Shown here: piece by piece, positions 9,357 through 23,177 of the stretch
How positions within the stretch are numbered: the first letter of the stretch is position 1
Layout of the letters: each line of letters starts with the position of its first letter
Sequence record: SRR31156797_3177
DNA length: 25,605 nt
Direction: 5' to 3' (one strand)
Notes under the pieces: generated by a model
Database searches by the model: none
Told to the model about the DNA's origin: nothing
Seen by the model: the letters and a program-made list of their open reading frames with translations, nothing else
Made by a program: the position numbers and the translations under genes

Positions 9357-9905
9357 CTAATCTCTCCCCTTGATAGATTCTTTTAATCCATTAAGTTGTG
9401 TCTTTATACTTCCGTCCAGTACCAAATCACCAACCTTTGCGATGATGCCACCGATTATCGTCGGATCGACCTCGGTCTGAAGTATAACCTTATTACCTGT
9501 AATTTTTTCTAAAGTAGCCTGGATACTTTTTTGCAGTTTGCTATCCAGTTCTACGGCAGAGACGACAGAACCATGACTGATGTTCTGATCCATGTCCACC
9601 ATGACTTGTATTTCGCTAGCTATATCAGGCAAGATGTCCGCTCTCTTTTTCTCAATCAACAAGTTAAGAAAACTAGACATTGTTGCATCTGCCTTTGCAT
9701 TTTTGGCAATTTGTGCCATCACTTTTTGCCGTGCATCAAGAGGATACAAAGGATTTGTCAACGCATCCCTGACACCAACGGCACTGTCATCGTACAATGC
9801 TGCGATAGCAGCTAGCAGCTCACTGTATTCTTCATTTTTCCCCTGCTCTTTACCCAAAGAAAAAAGCGCCTTTGCATAACGGCGTGCTAGAATTGTATTT
9901 CTCAC
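9357..9905 (-). CDS. atpH: F1Fo ATP synthase delta subunit
   Basis: [22 protein letters not shown]. The GTG start overlaps the atpF TGA stop (GTGA). Confidence 0.96.
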
Positions 9906-10648
9906 TGTACCGTACCCACTCTTTCAAGGAACTGTTCTGTTATCGTCACCTGATCTGCTGGAGTGAGATTGGAAACGATTAACTCCTCAGCCATTGCAGC
10001 TGCCTGCTCTGCAACCTCGTCACGTAACATCCGCTTTGCATCCTCCAGTTCACCTTGAATGGAAGATTCAGCCTGACGTTTAATATCTTCAGCTGCCTGT
10101 TCAGCCTCAGCGAGAATACGTTTCTTTTCATTCTCAGCTTGGGCAATTGCTTTCTCTACGACACGGTCCATTTCTTCTTCCATGCCAGCAAGCCGTGTCT
10201 CAAACTCCTTAAATTCAGCCTGAGCATCATCGCGTTTTGCCTCAAGTTCCTGCAGCTCTTCTTTTATTTGTTTTTGGCGACCAGAGAGCCCTGTAGCAAT
10301 TGGTTTGGCTAGGAACTTAACGAGCAAAATTACCAAGGCGATAAAGTTAACTGTTCTCCAAAAAAGGTCTTTCAGCTTTGCTGGAGCAAGCGATCCGCCA
10401 TGTACTTCTCCATGTTCACCTGCTGCATCAGGGGCGGCAGCGTGAGCGTCATCCTGGCGTGTAACTGCTCCTGCTGTTGCATGGCCTGCGGCTTCACCAT
10501 GGGATTCCACTGCAGCAGCTTCAGCATGAACAGCAGTTTTTCCACTCTCGTCGTGGCTTGGTGCTGAAGCCATGACAATCGATGCCGCGCCTGAAAACAG
10601 CAACAGCAACAGAGTAGGTACAATAATTCCGACAATACGAGATTTCAT
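9902..10648 (-). CDS. atpF: Fo subunit b with a long N-terminal extension
   Basis: Membrane anchor WRTVNFIALVILLVKFLAKPI at about residue 97, followed by an E/K/A-rich coiled coil. About 90 extra N-terminal residues. Located directly upstream of atpH. Confidence 0.93.
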   Translation of the reverse strand: MKSRIVGIIVPTLLLLLFSGAASIVMASAPSHDESGKTAVHAEAAAVESHGEAAGHATAGAVTRQDDAHAAAPDAAGEHGEVHGGSLAPAKLKDLFWRTVNFIALVILLVKFLAKPIATGLSGRQKQIKEELQELEAKRDDAQAEFKEFETRLAGMEEEMDRVVEKAIAQAENEKKRILAEAEQAAEDIKRQAESSIQGELEDAKRMLRDEVAEQAAAMAEELIVSNLTPADQVTITEQFLERVGTVQ

Positions 10649-11261: not shown

Positions 11262-11304
11262 GGGTAATATTACCCGGAAACAGACCGCAATGGGTAATTA
11301 TTAC
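11262..11304. repeat. Perfect 14-bp palindrome with an imperfect tandem copy (candidate operator sites)
   Basis: GGGTAATATTACCC (11262-11275) and GGGTAATTATTAC (11292-11304), with starts 30 bp apart. Confidence 0.5.
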
Positions 11305-12299
11305 ACAGCTTCACGACCCAACCAAGACACTAATAACGACATCCCTTCAGCTGTACTTACCTGTTCCTGGTAACCAAGTATATGCTTTGCCTTGTCGTGA
11401 TTGAACCAGTGCGAATGTGCCAATTGGTGAGCAAGAAAACGTGTCATTTTAGGCTCCGTTTTACATCCAACCAAGCCAAATACGCCCTCAAGAAGTGCTC
11501 CAGCCAGGTAAGCTAACCTAAACGGTACCTGTTTAGACACCTCCTCAATGCCAACCCTTGCAAACAGACTGTTGATCCACTCCCAAAGGTGCACCGGCTG
11601 CTCTTGCCCAATGAAAAATGCCTCCCCACCAGCGGAACCACTGGCGTGCAGATTTTCTGCAGCAAGAATATGAGCATGGACAACATTATCTATATAACTG
11701 ATATCGACGATATTGTCTCCCTTGCCTACAATTTTAAGCTTTCCCCCCCTACCTCGTTCAAGTAACCGTGGAATAAGGTGCTGATCCCCTGGCCCCCATA
11801 CAAGGTGTGGACGGATTGCTGCAGTCCGCAGTCCTTTGCCATCTGCTGCCAGCAGTATTTTTTCCGCTTCAATCTTACTTACGGCATAATGGCACAGTGG
11901 ACGGGCAGCATATGGCAACCGTTCGTCTTTGCCTGCAAGTGGGGCACGATCAAACACAACTGAAGGGGTCGAGGTGTAAACAAGAGCTGAGACGAACGCA
12001 TCCTGGCAAGCAGCAATAACATTTTGGGTGCCCTGGGTGTTTATCGAAAAATATTCTTCTTTAATTCCCCATATTCCTGCCTTCGCAGCGACATGAAAAA
12101 CGGTGTCGATTCCTCTAAAACTTGATTTTAAAAAATCCACATCACGAATATCACCACGATGACACCGCACCCCTAAAGCCGTCAACTGCGGATAGGAATT
12201 ACGACCTACCACAGTGACCTGAAGTCCCTTAGTAACCAATTTGCGTACGATGGCTTGACCAATAAAACCACCGCCACCAGTAACCAGTACATTTTTCAT
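11301..12299 (-). CDS. oleD: 2-alkyl-3-oxoalkanoate reductase OleD (extended SDR, 3-beta-HSD-like)
   Basis: TGGGGFIG, FHVAAKAG, YTSTPSVV, catalytic YAVSK, RPHLVWGPGD, YIDN. Fourth gene of an oleABCD run. Confidence 0.9.
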   Translation of the reverse strand: MKNVLVTGGGGFIGQAIVRKLVTKGLQVTVVGRNSYPQLTALGVRCHRGDIRDVDFLKSSFRGIDTVFHVAAKAGIWGIKEEYFSINTQGTQNVIAACQDAFVSALVYTSTPSVVFDRAPLAGKDERLPYAARPLCHYAVSKIEAEKILLAADGKGLRTAAIRPHLVWGPGDQHLIPRLLERGRGGKLKIVGKGDNIVDISYIDNVVHAHILAAENLHASGSAGGEAFFIGQEQPVHLWEWINSLFARVGIEEVSKQVPFRLAYLAGALLEGVFGLVGCKTEPKMTRFLAHQLAHSHWFNHDKAKHILGYQEQVSTAEGMSLLVSWLGREAV

Positions 12300-12355
12300 A
12301 AAATATAGATATACACGTTATTAAGCTTATGTCCTGACCAGGTCATCGTTACTCA

Positions 12356-13996
12356 TCAATCATGACACCCGACTTTACGTCCGGCCCAAAGAGCAAGCTG
12401 CTCACGGAAAATTTTAGCATTATGTCTAATATCAACAGGAAAACCGGGGTGGACAAGAAAGGTCTCTATCTCTTGGGTGATAGTGTTTGCAGCGGCTAAG
12501 GACTTGAGTTGCTGAAACAAGATTTCTTGGTGACGATTTTTCTGATTAAGCTCAACAATTAACACTGGCTTTTGCTTCCCTTTTTTTCCAACCCCTACAA
12601 GAGCCGAACGAAACACTGACGGATGTTCATTAAAAATTGCCTCACAGGGAATAGTGTATAAAATTCCAAGGTCCGTAAAAACCCTGTGTGCCTTGCGCCC
12701 ACAAAACCATAAACGTCCTTGGTCATCAAAGTAGCCCATATCCCCCATCCGGTGCCAAAACGTTTGCCCGTCAACAATTTTTGAATTGGCATTTTCTTGG
12801 GTATTACTGTCATAGGCTTTAGTAACCACCGGGCCCTTAACGACAATTTCCCCAATTTCACCGGTACCCAGTTCAACAGCTTTATTCCACTCAAATAACG
12901 GTCCTTCACAGGGAGTGATAACTTTAATCGTAATCCCAGGTAAAGGCTTGCCAACACAGGTCCCTCGTCCCCGCTGAGTCTGCTGCCAGGTTTCGTGGAC
13001 AACCTCATGACCCTCTATTGCTGCTATGGGAAGGCTTTCTGTGGCACCATAGGGCGTAAATACCTGCCCATCATTCTCCATTATCTGTTGCAGGCTCTGG
13101 GTAAGCGTCCCGGGAACGGGAGCACCAGCCATGAGAATCTTTTTCACAGGCAGTTTGATCCCGTTTTCCAGACAATATCGGCTGACTACACTCCAGATGG
13201 CGGGAGAGCCAAAAGAATAGGTGACGTCATACTCCAAAATGGATTTAACGAACTTCTCGGGGGTAACTTTTGCAGGTCGGGTCGGATCCATGTCCGGAAT
13301 AACAGCTGTCGCTCCCAAGGCAATTGAAAAGAGGCCGAATAATGGAAATCCTGGTTGATCGATATCTCCTTCTCCGATGCCAAAGTAATCCCTGATCAAC
13401 TCCAGTTGAGCATGAAAAATGCCATGTGTATACTGGACGCCCTTTGGAGGTCCAGTGGATCCGGTGGTAAAGATAATGGCTGCCAAATCATCGACATCGG
13501 CTTTGAAATGCGGGAGTTCAGGCCTGAACATTTTTGTATTAGAAGCATCAATTTCTTTCAGACAAGGTCCCTGCCAAAATATAGAATTTCCGACACAAAT
13601 ACTGGTGCGAAGTGACACAAAGGGTTTATAAAAAATTTTACTGAAATAAATTGCTTTGGGAATACCAATCAAAATATCTGGCCTGACAGCACCAATGCAA
13701 CGCAATAAATTCCTATATCCCATTCCTGGATCAATCAGGATAACCACCGCTCCAAGTTGAAACAGAGAAAAAGTCAGGCATATGAACTCAACCGACGGCT
13801 TAACCATCAGCATGACTCTGTCCCCTTTCTTTACTCCAAGCTCATGAATTTCTCCGACATAATCATTGGCAATGGCTGACAGCTCTTGAAATGACCAAGA
13901 CTGCCAGCCGCCCTTACACGGAGCAGCAAGCCCTCTCTTGTTTTTCAGTTTCTGAGCAACCTGTTCAAGAACATTCCCGATATTATAATCTATCAT
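12356..13996 (-). CDS. oleC: Olefin beta-lactone synthetase OleC (ANL / AMP-dependent ligase family)
   Basis: LIDPGMG, AMP-binding FTTGSTGPPKG, TPYGATE, WHRMGD, WFCGRKAHRV and the OleC-type C-terminal PVDIRHNAKI. Start set at ATG 13996 after a GAGGGG SD. Confidence 0.92.
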   Translation of the reverse strand: MIDYNIGNVLEQVAQKLKNKRGLAAPCKGGWQSWSFQELSAIANDYVGEIHELGVKKGDRVMLMVKPSVEFICLTFSLFQLGAVVILIDPGMGYRNLLRCIGAVRPDILIGIPKAIYFSKIFYKPFVSLRTSICVGNSIFWQGPCLKEIDASNTKMFRPELPHFKADVDDLAAIIFTTGSTGPPKGVQYTHGIFHAQLELIRDYFGIGEGDIDQPGFPLFGLFSIALGATAVIPDMDPTRPAKVTPEKFVKSILEYDVTYSFGSPAIWSVVSRYCLENGIKLPVKKILMAGAPVPGTLTQSLQQIMENDGQVFTPYGATESLPIAAIEGHEVVHETWQQTQRGRGTCVGKPLPGITIKVITPCEGPLFEWNKAVELGTGEIGEIVVKGPVVTKAYDSNTQENANSKIVDGQTFWHRMGDMGYFDDQGRLWFCGRKAHRVFTDLGILYTIPCEAIFNEHPSVFRSALVGVGKKGKQKPVLIVELNQKNRHQEILFQQLKSLAAANTITQEIETFLVHPGFPVDIRHNAKIFREQLALWAGRKVGCHD

Positions 13997-14008
13997 GACC
14001 CCTCTCAA

Positions 14009-14866
14009 TTATTGTTCCAGGAAACCTTTAATTAGAGGAAAAATATCTGGTAACGCATCTTCTAGTACGTAGTGCCCAGCCTCAGGAAAATAATGTCCTT
14101 GGGCATCTGGAAAACGAGCGAGCCATTCGTCATAAAAATGCCGGGTAAAACAAAAATCCTTCCCCCCCCAACAGATAAGCATGGGATGCTGTTGCAATCG
14201 TTCAAGGGATCGTTCAACTTCGACCAGACAGTTCCATGAAGGGTGATCTGCTGTTAATGGTATATCCTGGACAAATCTGAGAATCGCAATTCTATTTTTC
14301 CAGCTATCATAGGGGGCTAAAAAACCAGCTGCCACATCCCTGTGCATTTTTTTGGTCACAGCCATAAAAAGAGCGGCCCGGGCAAACCCGTTAAGCCCAC
14401 GGACCAAAAAATCGCCGATAACCGGCCAACGGCAGACAGCAATGCGAAATGGTATTCGCTTTGACCTGAAAGCAGCTGTATTCAAGACTACCACCTTCTT
14501 TACAATCTCAGAATTTCTCCCAGCCCATCCCATGCCTATTGCCCCACCCCAATCGTGGACCACCAGTATACACTCCTTAATCTGTAAATGGGCTAAAAGG
14601 GCTTCAAGGTTGGCAATATGATTTTGAAGGGAATAGTCATACTGCAAGGGCTTATCAGAAAAACCGCACCCAAGGTGATCGGGGACGATTAAACGAAAAT
14701 AACCAGAAAGCTGAGAAACCAGTTTCCGGTAAAGATAAGACCAGGAAGGATTCCCGTGAACACAGACAACCACTGGCCCTTCCCCTTCATCAAGGTATGC
14801 CATTCCCCCCCCACCTACCCTGAATCGTCTGGGAGTAAATGGATACTCTACAAGTTGGTGCATCAT
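14009..14866 (-). CDS. oleB: beta-lactone decarboxylase OleB (haloalkane-dehalogenase-like alpha/beta hydrolase)
   Basis: HGNPSWS, PDHLGCGFSDKP, nucleophile elbow HDWGG, GHYVLED. Lies between oleA and oleC. The start is ATG 14866 or 14863. Confidence 0.9.
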   Translation of the reverse strand: MMHQLVEYPFTPRRFRVGGGGMAYLDEGEGPVVVCVHGNPSWSYLYRKLVSQLSGYFRLIVPDHLGCGFSDKPLQYDYSLQNHIANLEALLAHLQIKECILVVHDWGGAIGMGWAGRNSEIVKKVVVLNTAAFRSKRIPFRIAVCRWPVIGDFLVRGLNGFARAALFMAVTKKMHRDVAAGFLAPYDSWKNRIAILRFVQDIPLTADHPSWNCLVEVERSLERLQQHPMLICWGGKDFCFTRHFYDEWLARFPDAQGHYFPEAGHYVLEDALPDIFPLIKGFLEQ

Positions 14867-14868
14867 GG

Positions 14869-15903
14869 TTACCACTCTATGCCAAGCATCAGCGAATTAA
14901 TCCCTGAGCCTATTCCAAGTAAGGCTGCTTTTTGGCCTGCTGCAAGCTTGCCCTGTTCAATCCCCATCGCCATGGTTACAGGTGCTGACACAGAACCTAC
15001 ATTACCTAGGACTGGCAGGGTTTCAAAATTTTTACGAGGATCCAGCTCCAATCGTGTGAAAAGAGCCTGAGCATGCGCTTTCCCTACCTGGTGACAAAAA
15101 AAGCGGTCGATGTCCTCTCCTGACCAACCAAGCTCACGTTGAAACCCGTGCCAACAACCGACTGCAGTTTCAATCCCCTGAAGTAACAGCTCCTCAGAAT
15201 CAGTGGACATCAATGTGCCCTGTTCGGAGTTTTGCCCCCCCTGGCAAAGATGATTATAGGCTGTATTGGCCCTACAGCTACCGCCTATCAAAGAATGACC
15301 TGTATCGAGAACACGCTTATCTGACATAACAATAGCCACCGCACCAGAACCAATGGTAAGAGAGGCAAACAAAGGTTTTACACTCTTCCTGGTAAGAGAT
15401 CTTTCCTCAAGCATGTGCCGCATGGTCGACTCAACCAAGTCCTCTGCAGTTTCTCCGGCAACAATCACCCCTGAGCGAACCTGCCCAAGCTCAATCATAT
15501 TGGCAAGCATGATCATGCCGTTCAGAAATCCAAGGCAAGCATTGGAAAGATCAAATAAATGGCAGGCATTGGGAAGTTCCAAAGACTGATGGACAAATGC
15601 TGCTGTGGCAGGTTCCATCATGTCCCGACTTACAGAGGTAAAAATAAGACAACCGATATCAGCTCTATCCACGCCAGAACGTTCAAGAGCCGCCTTTCCT
15701 GCCTGAGCAGCCCCTTCACTTGGTCTAGAGCCTTTATTCCACAAACGCCTGCTTTTGATACCGCTCATTAACTCCAGCCGACCGTGTGGGAGTTTCAACC
15801 GCTCATACAAGGGGGCAAGACGGCCTTCGATATCATCTGAGGTAAGAGTGATGGGTGGCAGCGCATACCCAAATTCATGCAGACAAACATTTGAAAATTG
15901 CAT
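14869..15903 (-). CDS. oleA: Head-to-head acyl condensing enzyme OleA (thiolase / KAS III fold)
   Basis: OleA-type catalytic set: Glu in EPATA, Cys in NACLGF, His in HQVG, Asn in GNVGS. Also ASLTIGSGA and the C-terminal GIGSGIN..W. Confidence 0.92.
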   Translation of the reverse strand: MQFSNVCLHEFGYALPPITLTSDDIEGRLAPLYERLKLPHGRLELMSGIKSRRLWNKGSRPSEGAAQAGKAALERSGVDRADIGCLIFTSVSRDMMEPATAAFVHQSLELPNACHLFDLSNACLGFLNGMIMLANMIELGQVRSGVIVAGETAEDLVESTMRHMLEERSLTRKSVKPLFASLTIGSGAVAIVMSDKRVLDTGHSLIGGSCRANTAYNHLCQGGQNSEQGTLMSTDSEELLLQGIETAVGCWHGFQRELGWSGEDIDRFFCHQVGKAHAQALFTRLELDPRKNFETLPVLGNVGSVSAPVTMAMGIEQGKLAAGQKAALLGIGSGINSLMLGIEW

Positions 15904-15945
15904 TATCTATGAGGTGATAAATTGAAATTAAACGGCTTTAAGTTA

Positions 15946-16188
15946 TTAGTCTTCAGGTGGATAGAACCCTTGAGCCCAGGTTAATAAAAGGGCTGCAAGA
16001 GCGACATCGTCGAGGATACCCACAACCGGCACCCATTCTGGAATAATATCATAGGGAGAAATTACATACAGCAACCCGCTGCCAAGAATTATTTTAACGT
16101 ACAGCGGTGTCTCTTTAGAGAAAAAGACAGCAACGGCATGTCTGGCCATCTGCACAACTCTATTCAGCATGTTTCCCCGCGACTGCAT
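15946..16188 (-). CDS. YkvA / DUF1232 family small membrane protein
   Basis: LLYVISPYDIIPEWVPVVGILDD matches the DUF1232 pattern Y..SP.D.IPD.iP..G.lDD. Alternative start at ATG 16170. Confidence 0.85.
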   Translation of the reverse strand: MQSRGNMLNRVVQMARHAVAVFFSKETPLYVKIILGSGLLYVISPYDIIPEWVPVVGILDDVALAALLLTWAQGFYPPED

Positions 16189-16224
16189 TCATATACGGTG
16201 CTGACCTTACCAGGCTACCTCTTT

Positions 16225-17025
16225 TCAGATGGAGGCTTTGGCTACAATCTCAGCATCAAAATAATTCATTCCCATGCCAGCATCGACTACTAAGCATTGA
16301 CCATTAATTCCAGAGGATCTAGGAGACAGTAAAAAGGCCGCAACATTTGCGGCTTCATCAGTTTTCAGTGCTTTTTTTCGCAGTGTCGCCTTTTCAGCAA
16401 ATAGATAACTGTCAATATAGCCTGGAATGCCTGCAGAAGCAGAAGTCTTCAACAAGCCCGGACACACAGCATTAAATCTGACTTCAGAAAAAGCGGAAAA
16501 ACTCTTTGCCAAAAAACAGATTGAGGATTCCAAAGCAGCCTTCACTGGTGCCATGTAGCCATAATTTTCAGCAGCCATTCGAGTAGTAGAGATGGAGATG
16601 GTTACGAGGGCAGCCTGTTTAGCAAGCAATGATCGAAAATGATTTGCAATTGAAATAAAGGAAAAACAACTGATATCAACCGCCTGGAGGAAATCTCTTT
16701 TGAGTGTTTCGTGAAAGGGTTTGAGGCCTTCAGAATAATTAGCAAATGCTATTGAGTGGACAATACCATCCACAGGACCATCAAGACCGCGTTCAATTTG
16801 ATCCCGAACAGCAATAATATTTTCTTCATTTTCGACATCACAAATAAAAACTTTGCTTTCCGGAAAAAGCTTTGCCGCCGTCTCTGCTCGCTGTTCAGAT
16901 CTCACTACATGGATGACCTCAGCACCAGCTTCAACCAGTACCCGACCGATGCGGCAGGCAACAGATTTTTTATTGGCTAGTCCAAAAATAATAATTTTAC
17001 GCCCTGTTACACCTAAAAAATCCAC
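16225..17025 (-). CDS. fabI: Enoyl-ACP reductase, FabI-like (cluster-specific paralog)
   Basis: [19 protein letters not shown], catalytic Y-x2-M-x3-K (YGYMAPVK), KAALES, VDAG. The GTG start abuts the fabZ stop. Confidence 0.85.
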
Positions 17026-17484
17026 TTAATCCCCTTTGAGTGCGCAGGCAAACTCAACCTGCACTGCAATTTTACCACGAACTCTGACATTTCCTTTCAA
17101 AAACCAGGCAGTTCCAAGTCTTTCGACTAAGCTTGCAGCAATTTCAATTGTGTCTCCAGGGCCAACTTCACGCTTAAACCTGGCATTCAAAATTCTTGTT
17201 AACACCGGAATGCTGCCGACTTGCTTTGGTTCGCCTTTTTGCTGCTGCTTATGCATCAATTCACTGATATAAACTGCTCCAGCCTGAAACACTGCCTCAC
17301 ACAGCAGCACTCCCGGCATAATCGGATAATCGGGATAATGTCCCCGAAAAAGGTCCAGGTTTTCAGGAATCGTCTTCTTTGCCTGAATCCCATCTTCGTT
17401 GATATCAGTAATTTCATCCAGCCAAAGAAAAGGAGGTCGATGGGGAATTCTGGAATGAAGATATTGTTGGTCACTTATTTCCAT
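17026..17484 (-). CDS. fabZ: 3-hydroxyacyl-ACP dehydratase, FabZ-like
   Basis: IPHRPPFLWLD and FRGHYPDYPIMPGVLLCEA (His/Glu dyad), ARFK..V.PGD. TAATG overlap with fabG. Confidence 0.88.
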   Translation of the reverse strand: MEISDQQYLHSRIPHRPPFLWLDEITDINEDGIQAKKTIPENLDLFRGHYPDYPIMPGVLLCEAVFQAGAVYISELMHKQQQKGEPKQVGSIPVLTRILNARFKREVGPGDTIEIAASLVERLGTAWFLKGNVRVRGKIAVQVEFACALKGD

Positions 17485-18224
17485 TACAGCCCTCCGGTAA
17501 CCTCAAGCACAGCACCATTGATGTACGTGGCATTGTCACTGGCAAGAAATAAAACCGCATCAGCCACCTCTTGAGGAGTGCCGAAACGCCGTTGCGGCAC
17601 CATCTTTTTATATTCTTTGAGCTGATTCTCGTTAAGGTCATCAATAAAATCAGTGGCAATAAAACCCGGTGATACACAATTGGCCGTAATTTTTCGTTTG
17701 CCCACTTCTTTTGAAAGTGATTTCATCAGGCCGACCTGGCCTGCCTTTGATGCAGCATAATTGGCTTGACCGGCAAACCCAAGATGCCCCATGGGTGAGG
17801 TAATAAAAACAATCCGACCATACTTCTGTTTCAGCATGAGAGGCAGTACGCATTTAGACATGATATAGCCGCCAGTGAGATTGACATCAATAACGCGACG
17901 CCAGTCCTCTTCTTTCATCATAGCCACTACAGCATCACGCCGGACCCCGGCATTGTTAACCAGGATGTCCACGGTATCATACCTATCTTCCACCTCGGCA
18001 AAAAAAACAGCAACGGCTTCATAGTCACTCACATCGAGTTGCTGAAGCAACAGGCGTCCATCAAAACGAGCACACTCCTGTTCCAACTGATTTGCGGCCT
18101 CTTTATTACCACCATAAACACCAAGAACCTCAGCACCACCGGCAAGCAGTGACAGCGTGATTGCCTTTCCAATGCCACGGGTTGCCCCGGTCACAACAGC
18201 TTTCTTTCCCTTAAAATCAGCCAT
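17484..18224 (-). CDS. fabG: 3-oxoacyl-ACP reductase, FabG-like
   Basis: TGATRGIG, LVNNAG, GQANYAASK, PGFIATD. Confidence 0.9.
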   Translation of the reverse strand: MADFKGKKAVVTGATRGIGKAITLSLLAGGAEVLGVYGGNKEAANQLEQECARFDGRLLLQQLDVSDYEAVAVFFAEVEDRYDTVDILVNNAGVRRDAVVAMMKEEDWRRVIDVNLTGGYIMSKCVLPLMLKQKYGRIVFITSPMGHLGFAGQANYAASKAGQVGLMKSLSKEVGKRKITANCVSPGFIATDFIDDLNENQLKEYKKMVPQRRFGTPQEVADAVLFLASDNATYINGAVLEVTGGL

Positions 18225-18283
18225 ATCCCTACACAGTAATATTCAAGTATGCATTCCGGTTATCCTTACAGAAGCCAACGCCC

Positions 18284-19696
18284 TCATCCCTGCTCGCGCA
18301 GGTAGCCGTCAACATCATGAGCTGCAATCACGCCATAGTTAATGGCTCCCAGCCAACCACTCATAATAATCCCCACAGAACCAACATGATAAAGGCCGGG
18401 TAAGGCCTTGTGGAGTGATCTGGAGATGTCAAGACCTTCAAATTTGGTCCCAAAAGAGGTTCCCCTGGTATGCAAGGTATATCGGTTAAAGGTTCTGGGA
18501 GTAGCTGATTCAACTGTATCAATTTTGCCTCTTATATCAGGAACATATCGTTCCAGATCAACTAGACACCTCTCGATCATTGCCTGCTTTGCCTGCTGAT
18601 ACTCGTTTGGTTCCAACCCAGCCCAATCTGCATAATTGGCGTTCATCGACGCGACGATAGTATAATCAGGTTTTTCCGGTCTTGTTTTGGGATAATATAC
18701 TGAAAAAGTTCGGCTCCTCGTCTCCATACCCCGCATCTCCTCGGCAGAGTATTCCTCTGCGGTGGAGGTAAACAACAGGTCGCCGATATCGTCAATGGTC
18801 TCTCCCTTACGAATACCAAAATACACCTGACAACTGGAGTTATTCACCTCAACCTTATCATGCTTGGCTAGGAAATCAGGGGAAAACATCTCTCTTCCGG
18901 CAAGGTTATCAATGGTATTGGTAATGCCAGCATTGGAAACAACAGCAGTTGCACCTACCTGTTTCCCGTTGACAATAACCCCACAGGTTTTACCATGATC
19001 GACCAGAACCTTTTCCACCTTGGCACCGGTACAAATTGTAACCCCCTTTTGCTGCAATTCTTTTGCCATCAGGCCAATAAGCGTATCTGTTCCGCCTTCA
19101 AAAGTATAGACTCCCCGGTTCATGAAATTTGAAAACACAATGCCGTAGGTTATTGCAGGTTCATCCATAGTAGACCCATTTGCATACGAAATGGGCTCCA
19201 TAAGCAGGCGGTGTATATCGGTCCGGCCCGGAAAAAACGTATCAAACAATTCTCTGGTGGTCATTGTTTGATCGTCGTAGAAATTCATGCCGTCGACAGT
19301 GGTAAAAAAATCATTGACGGTCTGAGTGGCGACACCAAAAGTCTCATGGAGGATACGAATAAAATCCTCTTTGCTAAAAGTCGTCGTCAGGGAGAATTGG
19401 GGGTTATCAAAAACAATCTTCGGCAATTGGACAATCCGGTCACGAATCTCTTTACCCCAGTATTTTTTACAGGTCTTCACCATCCCGTAGGGAAATCCGT
19501 GCAGGGAAACATCAAAAATATGCCCCCCCCGTTTAAACCAAGTCGCTAAACCACCAAGCTGGATATGGTGTTCAAGCAGCAACACTGAGTGTCCGGCATT
19601 GGCTAGCCTGTTTGCGCATGTCATTCCGCCAAGTCCTGACCCAATGACAACCACGTCATAGCAGTTTTCAAGCGTATCAAAAGAAGAATATTTCAT
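18284..19696 (-). CDS. Phytoene desaturase (CrtI) / retinol-saturase family FAD-dependent oxidoreductase, paralog 2
   Basis: Rossmann motif VIGSGLGG, LLLEHHIQLGG, FKRGGHIFDVSLH, FEGG, ATPRTFNRYT..GTSFG, GLYHVG. AAGGA SD upstream. The substrate is unknown. Confidence 0.85.
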   Translation of the reverse strand: MKYSSFDTLENCYDVVVIGSGLGGMTCANRLANAGHSVLLLEHHIQLGGLATWFKRGGHIFDVSLHGFPYGMVKTCKKYWGKEIRDRIVQLPKIVFDNPQFSLTTTFSKEDFIRILHETFGVATQTVNDFFTTVDGMNFYDDQTMTTRELFDTFFPGRTDIHRLLMEPISYANGSTMDEPAITYGIVFSNFMNRGVYTFEGGTDTLIGLMAKELQQKGVTICTGAKVEKVLVDHGKTCGVIVNGKQVGATAVVSNAGITNTIDNLAGREMFSPDFLAKHDKVEVNNSSCQVYFGIRKGETIDDIGDLLFTSTAEEYSAEEMRGMETRSRTFSVYYPKTRPEKPDYTIVASMNANYADWAGLEPNEYQQAKQAMIERCLVDLERYVPDIRGKIDTVESATPRTFNRYTLHTRGTSFGTKFEGLDISRSLHKALPGLYHVGSVGIIMSGWLGAINYGVIAAHDVDGYLREQG

Positions 19697-19726
19697 ATGT
19701 CCTTTATGCTGTTACGTAGCCGTGTC

Positions 19727-19892
19727 TAGGGGCTGCTGGATAATTTCTTTTTCCCCACCTCGGCGTTTTTTTCAAAAAACCAAACTCGCTGCTCGCAAGC
19801 GTAGACTAGACTCCGATACCAATTACATACCAGTGCTTGGTAGCTCTACATCCCCTGCCCTGAGAAAAAAACTATTCTCCAACAGATTCCTA
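19727..19892. mobile_element. Degenerate MITE-like / palindromic repeat element (about 166 bp)
   Basis: The left end TAGGGGCTGCTGGATAATTTCTTTTTCCCCA aligns with the reverse complement of the right end TAGGAATCTGTTGGAGAATAGTTTTTTTCTCA at about 22 of 32 positions by eye. It is bounded by CTAG on the left and CTAA on the right, and no transposase is encoded. Confidence 0.45.
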
Positions 19893-21266
19893 AGAAAGAA
19901 TATGTTGATTAATCACAGTAACGCCACTGAGCATTGCCCCGACAATACCTAAATACCCTTGGTCAGTACCGGCGATAAATAAATTTGGCCAAGGCGTTTT
20001 ACCGTCTTTTATCTTCAGGGGACTCCCATAAATGGCACCTTCTGCCTTCCGGGTAAAACGTTCCACAGTCAGCGGTGTAAAACTATCCTGGTAGACGACA
20101 TTATCACTGTAGGGACCGATAACTTCTTCCGCATTGCTTATCGCAGCCTGGGTCCACTGCTGCTTAAGCTTTTTATATTCAGCAGGCGTTGCAGCTTTCC
20201 AGAGTGCATAATTGGCAGCATTGGTGTTCCTGATCTGAAAACACTCTTCTTTCTCTATCCCTTGGAAATTGTCAGGAAAGCAGATAACCCCCCAAGAAAG
20301 ATCGAGAAATGTCGCCGGTCGCTGATACTGTAACTGCGATTTTTTATTATAAAAAAGGATTGTCGCCGAACTGTCAAGATCCTCTCTTGCCTTTTGATCA
20401 ACCAGGGAAACGGTTTCCATAAAACTCATCCGCCCACCGTATGCCTGCTGCGGTATATCCCAACCGCTGAGCTTTATGGTTTCCGGCATACCTACAGTGG
20501 AAAGTACCGCATCTGCTGTTAAAACCTCGCCATCGGCAAGCCGTATACCTTTAACCGTCCCCATTTCTCTGTGGATTTCTTTCACCAATGCACGGTAACG
20601 GATTTCCCCACCAAAACCTTTAAACTGGTCAAGCAGCATGGTAAGGAATTCTCGAATAGTTCCACCAGGTCGAAAAAAGCCCTCCTCAAAAACAGACCGA
20701 AACATTATCACAAACTGCCCCATGTCCATGTCGTGCTCCTCGGGGTTACCGTATACCATCAACGGCAGCAGTAACATTTCCTCCAACAATGGGTTGCCAA
20801 GAGTTTGTGATAGAAAGCCGCGTGCAGATTTCCATGGTTGCACCGTAAACGGATCATACTCGGCAATCCTTTCTTTTAGGGCAATAAACCTGTCCACACT
20901 ACCTGGGAAAGACCTTGCCACTTCCTGCTCAAGAACCAGGGGATCGTTGGAAAAAAGAAGGGACGCATCGGGGTAGCGTATTTCAGAACCTACCTGCTCA
21001 TGGGTAGCAAATGTTTTTCTAGAAAGTTTGAGTTGGCGGAAAAGGACGTTTAATGGTGCACGCTTATTGCCGGATGCCGCATAGTTGGTCATAGCGTGCA
21101 GCCCGGTTTCCAGTATTTGCCCCTGCCTGAAATAATAGGAATTCAGGCCTCCTGGAATGGTGTGCTGTTCAAGAAGTAATGTCTTGACTCCGAAACGCGC
21201 AGCCCGAATGCCTGCAGCTATTCCAGATAAACCGCCGCCAATGATAATCAGCTGATACTCAGCCAT
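19890..21266 (-). CDS. Phytoene desaturase (CrtI) / retinol-saturase family FAD-dependent oxidoreductase, paralog 1
   Basis: IIGGGLSG, LLLEQHTIPGGL, YFRQGQILETGLH, FTPLTVERFT..GAIYG, NLFIAG..G.LGIVGAMLSG. Start set at ATG 21266 (MAEYQL), just ahead of the Rossmann strand. Confidence 0.85.
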   Translation of the reverse strand: MAEYQLIIIGGGLSGIAAGIRAARFGVKTLLLEQHTIPGGLNSYYFRQGQILETGLHAMTNYAASGNKRAPLNVLFRQLKLSRKTFATHEQVGSEIRYPDASLLFSNDPLVLEQEVARSFPGSVDRFIALKERIAEYDPFTVQPWKSARGFLSQTLGNPLLEEMLLLPLMVYGNPEEHDMDMGQFVIMFRSVFEEGFFRPGGTIREFLTMLLDQFKGFGGEIRYRALVKEIHREMGTVKGIRLADGEVLTADAVLSTVGMPETIKLSGWDIPQQAYGGRMSFMETVSLVDQKAREDLDSSATILFYNKKSQLQYQRPATFLDLSWGVICFPDNFQGIEKEECFQIRNTNAANYALWKAATPAEYKKLKQQWTQAAISNAEEVIGPYSDNVVYQDSFTPLTVERFTRKAEGAIYGSPLKIKDGKTPWPNLFIAGTDQGYLGIVGAMLSGVTVINQHILS

Positions 21267-21339
21267 AGAAAAAAATGGGAAGGAGGGTAAGGGCAGGATT
21301 AACGGGCAGCAATGCCGGCGCAACCCTGCCTGCTCAAGT

Positions 21340-21591
21340 TCAGGCGTCTTTCAGCTTAGGTTCCAAGTAGTTAACACAGCTGGTCAAAGTTGCCAGTTCC
21401 GGATATTCGTCCTCGGGAACCTGCAACTGATACCGCTTTCGCAGTTCCATAACAATATCCAAAAAATCCATTGAGTCTAAATCAAGCTGATCACGTAACG
21501 GCGCATCTGCGTCGAGGTTATCAAATTCTGCTTCTTCGTCAATATCTTCTATTATTTCAAGGATGACATCCTTGATTTCTTCCCGAGTCAT
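21340..21591 (-). CDS. Acyl carrier protein (cluster-specific)
   Basis: 83 aa acidic protein with the phosphopantetheine site LDLDSMDFLDIV. ATG 21591 follows a GGGGATGGAG purine-rich RBS region. Confidence 0.93.
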   Translation of the reverse strand: MTREEIKDVILEIIEDIDEEAEFDNLDADAPLRDQLDLDSMDFLDIVMELRKRYQLQVPEDEYPELATLTSCVNYLEPKLKDA

Positions 21592-21775
21592 ACTCCATCC
21601 CCGTTGGTATTGAAAACTCTTCAAACAGCAGCTATTCAGCCAAGAGTCGTAGTCATAATTTGGAAATCAGCTAAATGGCCAGCGATTAATCTACGATCAT
21701 ACTGACAGCTCTTCCCACCCCCTGCCTATATTAATCAGGCGAGGGACAAAACGGAAAAGCATACCATAAAACACC

Positions 21776-23023
21776 TCAGCCCGCCACAAAACTCTTGACA
21801 ACGACTACTGAATTTATCCCCAGCATGCCAAATGAGTTGTTTAACACAGCATCTACACGAGAAAGTTTTTGCGGTTCACCACTCACCAATCCCTGCATGG
21901 CACAGTCGGGATCCAGCTGGTCAATATTAATGGTCGGGTGCACGTAATTATCGGCAAAAGAAGGAAGGTTGCCGGCAAGCTCAAGTACCCCTGCGGCGCC
22001 CATCGCATGCCCTATGCTAGATTTGGTATTATTGATATAGGTGGATGAGCAGTCGGCAAAAGTCTTTCTGATAGCCGAACATTCCTCTACATCTCCCTGA
22101 CGGGTGCCGGTTGCATGGGTGTTGACAATCGTGACATCACAAGCATTCATCCCTGCACGCTTAAGTGCCATTTCCATGCACTCCTGCTGCCGTGGCCCAT
22201 ACGGCAACACAAAATCCCTGGCATCGGAATTCATGGCATATCCTGCGAGTTCTCCATAAATTTTTGCTCCTCTTTTCAACGCACGGTCCAATCTTTCCAG
22301 GGTAAAGACACATCCCCCTTCTGAAATAACTATCCCGTTCCTCTCCATATCAAAGGGACGACTGGCGCGTACGGGGTCGGGGTGTTCAGCCAAGGCCCCC
22401 TGAGACTTAAAAGAAGCGAAAATACCAAAAGATCCTGTACACTCTGAAATCCCGCCGCAAAGAGCAAAATCAACTTCTCCCAGCCTCAGCATCTGGGCTC
22501 CCTGAATAAGAGCAGCATTCCCAGCTGCACATGCAGCACCAATTGTATAATGGGGACCGGTAATACCAAGATTCATGGTAATCTCACCGGCAGGATTATT
22601 AAGGACGGTTCGCGGGTTATGGTGGTGGGTCCAGTAGTCTACATCATAATCGAACTTGCTTATATTATAGACTTCATTTTCGGTTTCCACCGTCCCGTGC
22701 TCCGTGAGACCGAGATAGACTCCGGTTGCGCTGCGGTCATAGTCATCAAAGGTTATCCCAGAGTCGACCAAAGCCTCATTAGCACAGTACACAGAAATGC
22801 ATCCGGCCCGGCTTCCGCGCTTGTTCTCCTTCTTTTTACGGTACTTTGTCTCATCAAACGTACAAATACCGGCCGGGTGGACCCCCATATACCGAAGATC
22901 CAAAGTTGTTATGCCGCTTTTGCCGGCAAGAAGATTGGCTCTAAACTGGTCGAGCGAAGATGCACCAGGTGCGGCAAGCCCCACTCCGGTGATGACAATA
23001 CGTTGAGAATCAGACTGTTGCAT
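21776..23023 (-). CDS. fabF: beta-ketoacyl-ACP synthase, FabF/FabB-like (divergent)
   Basis: RIVITGVG, catalytic Cys (AACAAG), SRPFD..RNG...EG, His (NTHATGT), KS.IGH, NSFG. Start set at ATG 23023 (MQQSDSQR). The longer ORF-track start runs through the alaS terminator. Confidence 0.88.
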   Translation of the reverse strand: MQQSDSQRIVITGVGLAAPGASSLDQFRANLLAGKSGITTLDLRYMGVHPAGICTFDETKYRKKKENKRGSRAGCISVYCANEALVDSGITFDDYDRSATGVYLGLTEHGTVETENEVYNISKFDYDVDYWTHHHNPRTVLNNPAGEITMNLGITGPHYTIGAACAAGNAALIQGAQMLRLGEVDFALCGGISECTGSFGIFASFKSQGALAEHPDPVRASRPFDMERNGIVISEGGCVFTLERLDRALKRGAKIYGELAGYAMNSDARDFVLPYGPRQQECMEMALKRAGMNACDVTIVNTHATGTRQGDVEECSAIRKTFADCSSTYINNTKSSIGHAMGAAGVLELAGNLPSFADNYVHPTINIDQLDPDCAMQGLVSGEPQKLSRVDAVLNNSFGMLGINSVVVVKSFVAG

Positions 23024-23095
23024 GTGCTTACTATTATTTCGATGCTGCATCACTATCAATAAAAGTGCAGCAGAATCCGAGTTATGGTTTATGCG

Positions 23096-23132
23096 AAAAA
23101 CGCATATACGACCTCGGTCGCATATGCGTTTT
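23096..23132 (-). terminator. Hairpin / probable intrinsic terminator after alaS
   Basis: AAAACGCATAT-a-CGACC-tc-GGTCG-c-ATATGCGTTTT (23097-23132). The single a/c mismatch becomes a G-U pair on the minus-strand RNA, which ends in U5. It lies 45 nt downstream of the alaS stop. Confidence 0.75.
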
Positions 23133-23177
23133 ACAGCGTTTAACAAACAACTAATAATTTAAATAATTAACGGCAGG

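Follow-up and report, generated by a model that had tools for sequence, protein, structure and literature searches.

A twelve-gene operon in a Desulfobulbus relative joins a second type II fatty acid synthase and two CrtI-fold flavoproteins to oleABCD: a probable Pfa-independent source of chains for polyene hydrocarbons

How strict anaerobes without the Pfa synthase make the polyunsaturated hydrocarbons C31:8 and C31:9 is a question that dates from 2009. The locus described here bears on it, and also on whether there is a flavin-dependent way of making polyunsaturated chains without oxygen. It lies in a stretch of 25,605 nucleotides (record SRR31156797_3177, analysed whole and called the window below) from a relative of the sulfate-reducing Desulfobulbus, where one 12-kb unit unites a candidate supplier, its carrier, two flavoenzymes and four Ole enzymes. 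We put at roughly two in three (about 0.68) the probability that this single operon encodes a dedicated second type II fatty acid synthase which, with two CrtI-fold flavoproteins, supplies polyunsaturated acyl chains independently of Pfa to OleABCD, and that the latter dimerise them to a C31 polyene hydrocarbon.

The core of this idea is not new; it has been in print since 2009, yet it is unproven. The accessible text of Rattray et al. 2009 (PMC2649909) describes clusters of FASII and phytoene-dehydrogenase-like genes in Desulfotalea and Kuenenia and proposes a new anaerobic PUFA route, so that the earlier note on this DNA, made from its letters alone, had referred to such prior work correctly. 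According to the same portion of that paper, Desulfotalea psychrophila is without a PUFA-type PKS while C31:8 plus C31:9 make up 5% of its lipid. The accessible text of another paper predicts that C31:9 arises from two 16:4(n-3) chains via OleABCD (PMC4882568). As for the chemistry, of which the note knew no solution, a 2026 review (PMC13459092) still gives the ladderane route, including its desaturase step, as proposed mechanisms only. Our literature search, which covered few subscription journals, found no paper that connects the block with ole genes or with the exclusion of pfa. In 2010, Sukovich et al. reportedly found C31:9 in Planctomyces maris and in a strain of the Opitutaceae.

All twelve of the co-oriented genes that had been claimed are present on the minus strand (Table 1), in the order KS-ACP-flavoprotein 1-flavoprotein 2-fabG-fabZ-fabI-DUF1232-oleA-oleB-oleC-oleD. 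The tight junctions are as first described, with one base in common between fabG and fabZ, fabZ abutting fabI, and an overlap of 7 bases between oleA and oleB; oleB and oleC also abut. The gene arrangement is not a product of chance, because the identical order recurs in related loci. At the upstream end the mechanical KS reading frame begins at 23146 and crosses a strong terminator-like hairpin of the neighbouring alaS gene (-25.6 kcal/mol, z -4.9; none of 200 shuffles folded equally well), which marks the upstream edge of the operon. The KS probably starts at an ATG at 23023 or 23049, and the cluster end at 23023 adopted in the earlier note is the better start. A promoter and terminator consensus scan, which did not list the alaS hairpin, found no clear terminator inside the operon, and Rfam and tRNA scans over the window returned zero matches. 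A look for transcripts listed no RNA sample that contains this DNA; the one sample listed is probably its source.

Table 1. Positions of the operon, its genes and the hairpin at its upstream edge, in window coordinates
Feature	Position	Strand	Basis
Operon, 12 co-oriented genes	11301-23023	-	ORF list, Pfam, NCBIfam
KS, divergent FabF-type beta-ketoacyl-ACP synthase	21776..23023 (mechanical ORF 21776-23146)	-	Pfam, TIGR03150
ACP, dedicated acyl carrier protein	21340..21624	-	PF00550
Flavoprotein 1, CrtI fold, more divergent paralogue	19890..21323	-	Amino_oxidase, NAD_binding_8
Flavoprotein 2, CrtI fold, strongly conserved paralogue	18284..19696	-	Amino_oxidase
FabG-type 3-oxoacyl-ACP reductase	17484..18224	-	adh_short
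FabZ-type 3-hydroxyacyl-ACP dehydratase	17026..17484	-	PF07977
FabI-type enoyl-ACP reductase	16225..17025	-	adh_short_C2
Small DUF1232 protein, role unassigned	15946..16188	-	PF06803, 46.9 bits
OleA, thiolase-fold head-to-head condensing enzyme	14869..15903	-	NF006720
OleB, alpha/beta-hydrolase, predicted beta-lactone decarboxylase	14009..14875	-	Abhydrolase_1; between oleA and oleC
OleC, AMP-dependent enzyme, predicted beta-lactone synthetase	12356..14008	-	NF006754
OleD, NAD(P)H-dependent 2-alkyl-3-oxoalkanoate reductase	11301..12299	-	3Beta_HSD
Terminator-like hairpin and U-run just after alaS stop codon	23097..23132	-	Sequence and fold

The upstream genes encode the full discrete elongation cycle that had been proposed, with its own ACP and two flavoproteins beside KS, FabG, FabZ and FabI. 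The KS carries both the N and C ketoacyl-synthase domains of Pfam and reached 294.7 bits with TIGR03150 against a cut-off of 493.75, the best ACP model gave 42.6 bits against 66, FabG gave 280.7 against 297.75 with TIGR01830, FabZ 108.6 against 113 with NF000582, and FabI 165.9 against 362 with the top FabI model. FabF, AcpP, FabZ, FabI and FabG thus all lie under the equivalog cut-offs of a housekeeping type II FAS; one FabG subfamily model was passed (245.3 against 222), and FabZ found PDB FabZ matches down to E 1e-20. Inspection by eye showed intact catalytic motifs for KS (Cys/His/His motifs AACAAG, HATGT and GHAMG), ACP (serine motif DSM), FabZ (His and Glu motifs), FabI, FabG, OleA and OleB. 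Among the PDB sequence-search matches, FabZ and ACP showed no preferential closeness to anammox structures. Versions of the cluster from Desulfobulbaceae, Chloroflexota and Opitutaceae include FabI, and the DUF1232 protein occurs, among related loci, only in Desulfobulbaceae loci like that of the window.

Might these genes simply be the housekeeping fatty-acid set of the organism, lying beside ole? They do encode a complete elongation cycle, and a second fab set is known from relatives, not from the window's own genome. However, every score falls under the housekeeping cut-offs, domain annotation of the window found no FabD, FabH or Acc genes beside the block, and the genomes of all five relatives with the same block hold exactly one FabF over the curated cut-off (637-664 bits), located apart from the block, in addition to 5-11 divergent KS matches per genome. 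We regard the fab genes of the block as divergent paralogues which, in line with the earlier note, are probably not the sole housekeeping copies, and we give the housekeeping explanation practically no credence. From these five genomes we infer that the window organism has its own housekeeping fab set and lacks pfa.

Flavoproteins 1 and 2 are ancient paralogues, 22% identical to each other. Their AF2 models (pLDDT 92.0 and 89.3, respectively) have the GR2-type FAD fold of CrtI and CrtD by Foldseek, with CrtD, CrtI and PDS as the best structural matches of these predicted models; the best PDB fold was 4rep (CrtD) for both (TM 0.73, E 2e-25 and TM 0.74, E 4e-26), and 4dgk and 5mog were also matched. 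Although the predicted fold is held in common, identity to solved CrtI-type structures is only 14-18%, the two TIGR02734 scores (85.0 and 46.1 bits) lie far under the CrtI/phytoene desaturase family cut-off of 238.1, and no carotenoid genes are nearby, the window containing no crtB, crtE or cyclase gene. A PDB sequence search gave weak matches for both, in the FAD-binding part only (E about 1e-8 to 1e-9); the FAD-binding signature is retained. Flavoprotein 1 likely starts at M20 (21266). Flavoprotein 2 is 57-63% identical between phyla, with 121 invariant residues among 39 sequences, and its partner lies upstream of it in 56 of 61 loci and is missing there in the other 5. In the accessible text of PMC4790861, the Kuenenia homologues show no CrtI activity and do not replace CrtI, and expression work in E. 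coli established no ladderane pathway.

Alternatively, the flavoproteins might be saturases or reductases of the RetSat type and not makers of double bonds, taking over enoyl reduction in clusters without FabI or trimming C31:9 to C31:8. Such a role would fit the Desulfocapsaceae version of the cluster, from which FabI is absent, a neighbouring protein-atlas cluster labelled "all-trans-retinol 13,14-reductase family", and the excess of C31:8 over C31:9 given for Desulfotalea in the accessible text of PMC2649909. We nevertheless hold it to be quite improbable, given that the window has its own FabI alongside both flavoproteins, that KS and ACP, and not ole, are what the flavoproteins accompany where the two halves of the operon are apart, and that eight or nine double bonds made without pfa would lack a source if no enzyme of the cluster formed double bonds.

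Downstream, the four Ole genes follow in the contiguous order A (thiolase), B (alpha/beta-hydrolase), C (AMP-dependent ligase) and D (SDR reductase) on one strand. OleA is of the thiolase-fold condensing type distinct from FabH: it scored 439.4 bits with NF006720 against a cut-off of 285 that was passed in none of 14 control genomes, and it shows the active-site cysteine motif NACLG by eye. OleB resembles haloalkane-dehalogenase models, under their cut-offs. OleC passed the broader NF006754 (650.6 against 478) and stayed below the equivalog level of the named olefin beta-lactone synthetase models (530.9 against 900 and 503.6 against 850), as did OleD with NF042423 (390.1) and NF042422 (352.9), whose cut-off is 580; both are best-named matches, yet divergent from the Xanthomonas and Shewanella models. 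Characterised OleA enzymes take acyl-CoA as substrate. It counts against the proposed coupling that genes for FabD, a phosphopantetheinyl transferase, a thioesterase and an acyl-CoA ligase are all lacking from the cluster, which thus offers no evident means of passing a chain from ACP to OleA.

The fab/flavoprotein half and the ole half, which the earlier note had treated as one system, are also syntenic elsewhere. When we compared 33 loci from several phyla with at least 8 kb of flank on both sides (from a wider set of 61), KS, ACP and flavoprotein 1 lay beside flavoprotein 2 in every one, and at least one ole gene was found within 10 kb in 23 of them (oleA itself in 13). There are three block-ole arrangements, and gene orders differ between Desulfobulbaceae, Dehalococcoidia and Opitutaceae. 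Desulfobulbus rhabdoformis DSM 8777 (locus L027), a relative that is in culture, has the same operon arrangement as the window, Desulfocapsaceae loci (e.g. L015 and L023) have a six-gene form of the block, and the Desulfotalea version is without FabI and shows no ole fusion.

By Pfam and ORF annotation the window contains no pfa-type gene, as had been claimed, and a wider pfa search, which the earlier note had called for, found PfaD (TIGR02814) in none of the five relatives and in none of 75 flavoprotein-bearing genomes of the three phyla sampled. These samples comprised 603 genomes (301 Desulfobacterota, 151 Verrucomicrobiota and 151 Planctomycetota), of which 113 have OleA: 70 of these also carry the flavoprotein and a different 40 carry PfaD, with 3 genomes lacking both and none containing both. 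In Desulfobacterota, flavoprotein was found in 17 genomes and OleA in 28; the 13 with both all lack PfaD, which is present in 13 of the 15 with OleA only. Verrucomicrobiota gave 31 genomes with flavoprotein and 31 with OleA, 30 of them shared, and the single OleA-only genome has PfaD 15 kb from oleA. All 27 flavoprotein-bearing Planctomycetota have OleA, while PfaD occurs in 26 of 27 OleA-only genomes of this phylum. Among five carriers from other phyla, OleA was found in four and PfaD in none. The P values for co-occurrence ignore kinship between genomes. Many of the sampled genomes have PfaD no more than about 15 kb away from oleA. Large KS-bearing ORFs in two relatives (G001 and G005) were considered as PfaA and rejected, being model matches only; they are other PKS/NRPS types, namely a reducing type I PKS, an NRPS-PKS hybrid and an ER-KS-AT-ACP-KR-DH protein, with no FabA-type dehydratase. 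Since OleA genomes divide into 70 with the flavoprotein and 40 with PfaD, with none having both, the flavoprotein module is most likely a substitute for the Pfa synthase in providing Ole with acyl chains.

In an OleA tree, the pfa-linked sequences fall in one clade with 100/100 support, except that of genome G045, and the single pfa-type verrucomicrobial OleA belongs to this clade, apart from 12 other verrucomicrobial OleAs. A single clade of all pfa-linked OleAs was rejected (p-AU 0.026), because G045 sits elsewhere on a long branch.

It could be argued that the fab/flavoprotein block makes a separate lipid, such as a pigment, a polyene acid or a ladderane-like precursor, and that its adjacency to ole is accidental. 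OleA was not found in 5 of the 75 flavoprotein-bearing genomes (G011, G019, G061, G098 and G382), no ole gene is near in 10 of the 33 full-flank loci, and anammox bacteria, according to the accessible text of PMC2649909, have related genes and no such hydrocarbon. The module may therefore have other sinks in these OleA-less carriers, one of which (G098) has three copies of it. Against an accidental adjacency stand the presence of OleA in the other 70 carriers, a pattern complementary to that of PfaD, the recurrence of the ole linkage with rearranged gene orders in different phyla, and the one verrucomicrobial test case above, in which OleA lineage tracks the partner system. We judge a separate lipid to be very improbable, and retain the reading of the block as supplier to Ole.

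The only other OleA partner seen in the sampled genomes is Pfa (pfaABCDE), likewise an oxygen-independent acyl supplier linked to oleABCD, as in Shewanella and the pfa-ole tandem of Geobacter bemidjiensis (accessible text of PMC3098273 and PMC4882568). Whereas Pfa consists of multidomain megasynthases, the window operon encodes discrete type II enzymes, has neither a PfaD-type reductase nor a FabA-type dehydratase domain, and has two CrtI-fold flavoproteins where Pfa uses FabA-like domains. The "extended FASII" of Desulfotalea and Kuenenia, as far as it can be matched by its description in the accessible text of PMC2649909, embodies the same idea and most likely the same gene family. As in those clusters, a divergent FabF-type KS, an own ACP, FabZ, FabG and paired phytoene-dehydrogenase-like flavoproteins are found in the window, in a genome which is pfa-less as judged from relatives. 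The window block adds FabI and the fusion to oleABCD in one operon. In contrast, that portion of the paper leaves ole genes unmentioned, proposes decarboxylation of a C32 acid, and involves radical-SAM genes, of which there are none in the window.

How might such flavoproteins place double bonds? In the FabA/FabB pathway of E. coli, a double bond is introduced while the chain is an enoyl-ACP, and a dedicated KS carries it through further elongation, without oxygen. We take this pathway as a working analogy; unlike E. coli, the window has no FabA homologue, and the isomerising role would fall to the flavoproteins. The dedicated KS, FabG, FabZ and, where present, FabI would run elongation cycles on the dedicated ACP, and the flavoproteins would act on ACP-bound enoyl or allylic intermediates from the cluster FabZ, setting cis double bonds that escape reduction and that the specialised KS would carry forward. 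A methylene-interrupted pattern such as 16:4(n-3) would need two alternating double-bond placements, which would fit two ancient paralogues, each being either a redox-neutral isomerase (CrtISO-like) or a dehydrogenase (like CrtI or UfaD). Two such chains would next be joined by OleA, after which OleD would reduce the keto group and OleC would form the beta-lactone for decarboxylation by OleB. By analogy with pfa-less Desulfotalea, in which it was measured, the product is likely a C31:8/C31:9 polyene.

A precedent for the substrate class, likened here by description, is UfaD of Rhodobacter furan fatty acid synthesis, a phytoene-dehydrogenase-like flavoprotein able to desaturate a fatty acyl chain (accessible text of PMC7380195). 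UfaD is a single enzyme that acts on phospholipid-bound chains and forms a conjugated trans diene, with product seen only in aerobically grown cells, whereas the window flavoproteins are a pair with their own KS and ACP. The characterised CrtI-family desaturations, that of UfaD included, give conjugated bonds (same text), mostly trans and beside an existing one, and not skipped cis bonds. The module might accordingly feed Ole another special chain (monounsaturated, conjugated-polyene or otherwise modified), and the hydrocarbon would not be a skipped polyene of the C31:9 type. The accessible text of PMC2649909 does not state the double-bond positions of the Desulfotalea hydrocarbons, and the Desulfobulbaceae product is a prediction. 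Nevertheless, the mutual exclusion with PfaD seen in three phyla suggests that the module does the same job as the PUFA synthase, and the Desulfotalea C31:8 and C31:9 have masses known from pfa-bearing bacteria (same text); we consider another chain unlikely and prefer the polyunsaturated one.

We consider the chances even that the flavoproteins, with their own KS, ACP and FabZ, constitute a "type II PUFA synthase", a flavin-based and O2-independent route to polyunsaturated acyl chains that would be the third after the O2-dependent desaturases and Pfa, and that this route is spread over Desulfobulbales (relatives of cable bacteria included), Opitutaceae, Planctomycetota, Dehalococcoidia and others, in which Ole works with it instead of Pfa. 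From the either/or occurrence with PfaD across three phyla a clear functional prediction follows, and the question is directly testable since the cultured D. rhabdoformis has the same arrangement. If the chemistry is new, it would add an enzyme class for oxygen-free double-bond placement, with relevance to membrane adaptation, sediment lipid biomarkers and hydrocarbon bioproduction; if the route exists as proposed, its flavoprotein chemistry may also be relevant to the polyene precursors proposed for the anammox ladderanes.

The twelve co-oriented genes of the cluster lie on the minus strand from 11301 to about 23023 in the ORF list. The junctions described in the earlier note are borne out by the ORF coordinates, fabG and fabZ having 1 base in common and oleA and oleB overlapping by 7 bases, with fabZ abutting fabI and oleB abutting oleC as well. 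The flanks are core chromosomal genes according to Pfam and the window annotation: alaS lies on the upstream side, and the downstream side holds the ATP synthase operon, an amidase and mutS. Immediately 3′ of the alaS stop we found a strong hairpin (23097-23132, minus strand; 16 bp and a U-run; -25.6 kcal/mol, z -4.9) that sets the cluster apart from alaS and that is not listed by a consensus terminator scan of the window. Since this hairpin is located within codons 1-40 of the longest (mechanical) KS ORF, the TTG start at 23146 is spurious and the KS start is probably the ATG at 23023 or 23049, in agreement with the end at 23023 proposed previously. In the neighbouring operon, the longer of two ATP synthase b subunits (9902-10648, minus strand, 248 aa) is extended at its N terminus by about 90 residues, which open with a signal-like hydrophobic segment and include a stretch rich in Ala, His and Gly; its ATP-synt_B domain begins at residue 95.

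Genes of the cluster, all on the minus strand, identified by Pfam and NCBIfam
Gene product	Coordinates
FabF-type ketosynthase (KS)	21776-23146 as mechanical ORF
Acyl carrier protein (ACP)	21340-21624
Flavoprotein 1, amine-oxidase/CrtI-type	19890-21323
Flavoprotein 2, amine-oxidase/CrtI-type	18284-19696
FabG	17484-18224
FabZ	17026-17484
FabI	16225-17025
DUF1232 protein, 80 residues	15946-16188
OleA	14869-15903
OleB	14009-14875
OleC	12356-14008
OleD	11301-12299

The catalytic signatures, judged by eye in the translations, are intact in the KS (Cys-His-His), FabZ (His and Glu), FabI (Tyr-x6-Lys), FabG (Tyr-x3-Lys), OleA (active-site Cys) and OleB (Asp in the HDWGG motif), and the phosphopantetheine serine of the ACP is present. 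In both flavoproteins the dinucleotide-binding glycines are kept, and the second strand ends in an invariant Glu. OleA scores over its cut-off (NF006720, 439.4 vs 285); for OleC and OleD the named olefin enzymes are the best models, yet the scores fall under those equivalog cut-offs, marking them as divergent members. The fatty acid synthesis genes diverge from their housekeeping counterparts, all scoring below the NCBIfam cut-offs: 294.7 vs 493.75 for the KS with the FabF model, 42.6 vs 66 for the ACP, 108.6 vs 113 for FabZ, 165.9 vs 362 for FabI and 280.7 vs 297.75 for FabG. That the block of KS, ACP, flavoproteins and fab genes is simply the housekeeping FAS is practically untenable, given these scores and the presence, in each of five relatives searched (genomes G001-G005, carrying the related loci L027, L015, L055, L001 and L003, respectively), of exactly one FabF over the cut-off (637-664 bits), located away from the block.

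The same five genomes contain 5 to 11 divergent KS matches each besides FabF. OleA was found in all of them, next to the block in three genomes and on a different contig in the other two, and PfaD, the marker of the Pfa megasynthase, in none. The PfaA model matched large ORFs in G001 and G005, which we rejected as Pfa: one is a fully reducing KS-AT-DH-ER-KR-ACP polyketide synthase, another an NRPS-PKS hybrid, and the third, a small caveat for G005, an ER-KS-AT-ACP-KR-DH protein on a 14-kb contig; FabA-type dehydratase domains were found in none of the three. This third protein (L121:3397-11355, G005:C129; 2652 aa), alone on its contig, has an NMO-type ER, KS, AT, ACP, KR and a PKS-type DH and is not a canonical Pfa, in a genome that also has the flavoprotein module. 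In Desulfobulbus rhabdoformis, genes for a class I/II aminotransferase and an acyltransferase-like protein come after the single-module fully reducing type I PKS (L122:6881-16700, G001:C148; KS-AT-DH-ER-KR-ACP, 2542 aa), and this arrangement suggests a long-chain amino lipid. Each relative also has a second, larger lipid locus (G001:C137:58000-85000; G002:C11:360000-414000; G003:C169; G004:C70; G005:C22) with 3-5 more divergent KS paralogues, among them KS-like ORFs about 750 aa long. It probably corresponds to the other "extended FASII" locus known from Desulfotalea and Kuenenia, and no flavoprotein 2 copy was detected there at E 1e-30.

The two flavoproteins are paralogues that share 22% identity over 449 residues. 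PDB sequence searches gave weak matches for both, and the AlphaFold models were confident (pLDDT 89.3 for flavoprotein 2 and 92.0 for flavoprotein 1). With Foldseek, the top structure for both was the CrtD desaturase 4rep (TM 0.74 and 0.73, respectively), followed by 3ka7 (an archaeal oxidoreductase), 4dgk (CrtI) and 5mog (a plant phytoene desaturase) at 14-18% identity. Conservation is high, with 121 invariant residues in 39 flavoprotein 2 sequences from several phyla and 71 in 42 flavoprotein 1 sequences. In the protein atlas, flavoprotein 2 groups with unnamed clusters of the "phytoene desaturase family", most of them from Planctomycetota and Verrucomicrobiota, and no carotenoid genes occur near the flavoproteins in the window. 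The phytoene-dehydrogenase-like UfaD has been reported to desaturate a fatty acyl chain (Lemke et al. 2020, PMC7380195), and Kuenenia homologues, one of which was purified and found soluble, do not substitute for CrtI (Javidpour et al. 2016, PMC4790861). It is very unlikely that the two proteins are saturases.

A search with flavoprotein 2, using one genome per species, gave no fewer than 591 related stretches, and we took the best 80 of them as loci. The closest among these are from Desulfobulbaceae (78% identity to Desulfobulbus rhabdoformis DSM 8777, L027, where all twelve genes are arranged as in the window). Identities of 57-63% extend to Dehalococcoidia/Chloroflexota, Opitutaceae and other Verrucomicrobiota, Phycisphaerales, a Nitrospinaceae MAG and a Muiribacteriota MAG. 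When neighbouring genes were located by tblastn with the window proteins, KS, ACP and flavoprotein 1 were beside flavoprotein 2 in 33/33 loci with at least 8 kb on each side. The synteny of the fab/flavoprotein half with the ole half recurs elsewhere in an order varying by lineage, with one or more ole genes no further than 10 kb away in 23 of these 33 loci (oleA in 13). The gene for flavoprotein 1 precedes that for flavoprotein 2 in 56 of the 61 loci with enough upstream sequence (all except L034, L064, L068, L072 and L079). Desulfobulbaceae loci have the same order as the window, alaS and atpF flanks included. Desulfocapsaceae, whose carriers include Desulforhopalus vacuolatus DSM 9700 (L055), have a six-gene block (KS, ACP, the two flavoproteins, FabG and FabZ) followed by tol genes, lacking FabI, with oleD and oleC nearby on the opposite strand or elsewhere; in Dehalococcoidia oleA is upstream of the KS, and in Opitutaceae fabZ-fabI-oleA-oleB lie downstream of a block without fabG. 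This linkage, kept despite rearrangement, argues for a functional tie, and a block that serves another lipid and adjoins ole by chance is highly improbable. The constant partners of the flavoproteins are KS and ACP, plus FabZ in nearly all loci; FabG, FabI and the ole genes may be located away from them. At L034:10001-11401, in the cable bacterium Candidatus Electronema sp., flavoprotein 2 (75% identity) was found with the other cluster genes undetected in 10 kb upstream and about 6 kb downstream, where three masked N runs may hide genes.

Occurrence of flavoprotein 2, OleA (NF006720) and PfaD (TIGR02814) in even samples of three phyla; in Desulfobacterota PfaD was searched only in the 31 genomes with either marker
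Phylum	Genomes	Flavoprotein 2	OleA	Both	OleA only	OleA only, with PfaD	Flavoprotein 2 with PfaD
Desulfobacterota	301	17 (strong matches)	28	13	15	13	0/17
Verrucomicrobiota	151	31	31	30	1 (G380)	1	0/31
Planctomycetota	151	27	54	27	27	26	0/27

Across the three phyla, the 113 genomes with OleA have flavoprotein 2 in 70 cases, PfaD in 40, neither in 3 (G117 and G184 in Desulfobacterota, G462 in Planctomycetota) and both in 0. One planctomycetal OleA (G539) is a contig-end fragment below the cut-off. Fisher tests on co-occurrence gave very small P values but ignore shared ancestry; the weight of evidence rests on the same either/or pattern appearing in three phyla. PfaD is often within about 15 kb of oleA in Desulfobacterota and 15 kb away in G380, and five carriers from other phyla have OleA in 4/5 and PfaD in 0/5. 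Pfa-like clusters co-occur with ole and have been proposed to feed it (Shulse and Allen 2011, PMC3098273); by its co-occurrence pattern, the flavoprotein module occupies the same place relative to Ole. Flavoprotein 2 without OleA was found in G382 (Verrucomicrobiota) and in G011, G019, G061 and G098 (Desulfobacterota). The last has three copies with 53-56% identity (C28:11221-12594, C8:69344-70750 and C1:107334-108746), neither OleA nor PfaD being found in that genome, which hints that the module is able to serve another end product.

In a maximum-likelihood tree of 42 OleA sequences, 12 of the 13 pfa-linked Desulfobacterota OleAs form one clade (100/100 support), which also includes one "neither" genome and the single pfa-linked verrucomicrobial OleA. 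The latter sits inside this clade (100/99), apart from the 12 other verrucomicrobial OleAs, all from flavoprotein-bearing genomes. Judging from these sequences, the OleA lineage appears to follow its partner system. Strict monophyly of all 14 pfa-linked OleAs was rejected (p-AU 0.026), since that of G045 is placed elsewhere on a long branch.

The idea of an anaerobic PUFA pathway is not new. Rattray et al. (2009, PMC2649909) described FASII clusters in Kuenenia that contain phytoene-dehydrogenase-like and radical-SAM genes and are strikingly syntenic in Desulfotalea psychrophila, reported a PUFA-type polyketide synthase to be absent from both, and proposed such a pathway. Desulfotalea contains the hydrocarbons C31:8 (4%) and C31:9 (1%) (PMC2649909), and the predicted origin of C31:9 is the joining of two 16:4(n-3) chains via OleABCD (Yoshida et al. 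2016, PMC4882568). It is unlikely that the module supplies Ole with another type of chain. Rattray et al. assumed decarboxylation of a C32 acid, and ole genes go unmentioned in the available portions of their paper (PMC2649909); a 2026 review (PMC13459092) still treats the ladderane route, desaturase step included, as a matter of proposed mechanisms only.

In the most likely scheme for supplying polyunsaturated chains to Ole, the dedicated KS, FabG, FabZ and FabI would elongate a chain on the dedicated ACP, and the two flavoproteins would act on ACP-bound enoyl-stage intermediates, setting cis double bonds that escape reduction and that the KS would pass on through further elongation. We assign the flavoproteins to the carrier-bound chain and not to the finished hydrocarbon because KS, ACP and FabZ are their constant partners and FabG, FabI and ole are separable. 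A 16:4(n-3) chain would call for alternating placement, at the 3-position (at C6 and C12) versus the 2-cis or 4-position (C8/C10 and C14/C16), and two differing double-bond reactions would fit two old paralogues. These could be isomerisations that use reduced flavin and are redox-neutral, or else dehydrogenations that use an acceptor. The main chemical objection to this role is that the known desaturating members of the CrtI family give conjugated bonds. The Ole steps follow established enzymology (condensation, reduction, lactone closure and decarboxylation), as also named in the NCBIfam models. FabD, a phosphopantetheinyl transferase, a thioesterase and an acyl-CoA ligase are all missing from the cluster, which leaves the hand-off from ACP to OleA without an assigned enzyme.

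The Ole pathway itself is well known and the hypothesis of an anaerobic route is seventeen years old and unproven. Our literature search, covering few subscription journals, returned no paper that connects the block with ole or with pfa exclusion. What our analysis adds is the fusion of the block with oleABCD in one operon and its either/or relation with PfaD in three phyla, which together make the module the leading candidate for a Pfa-independent supplier of Ole.
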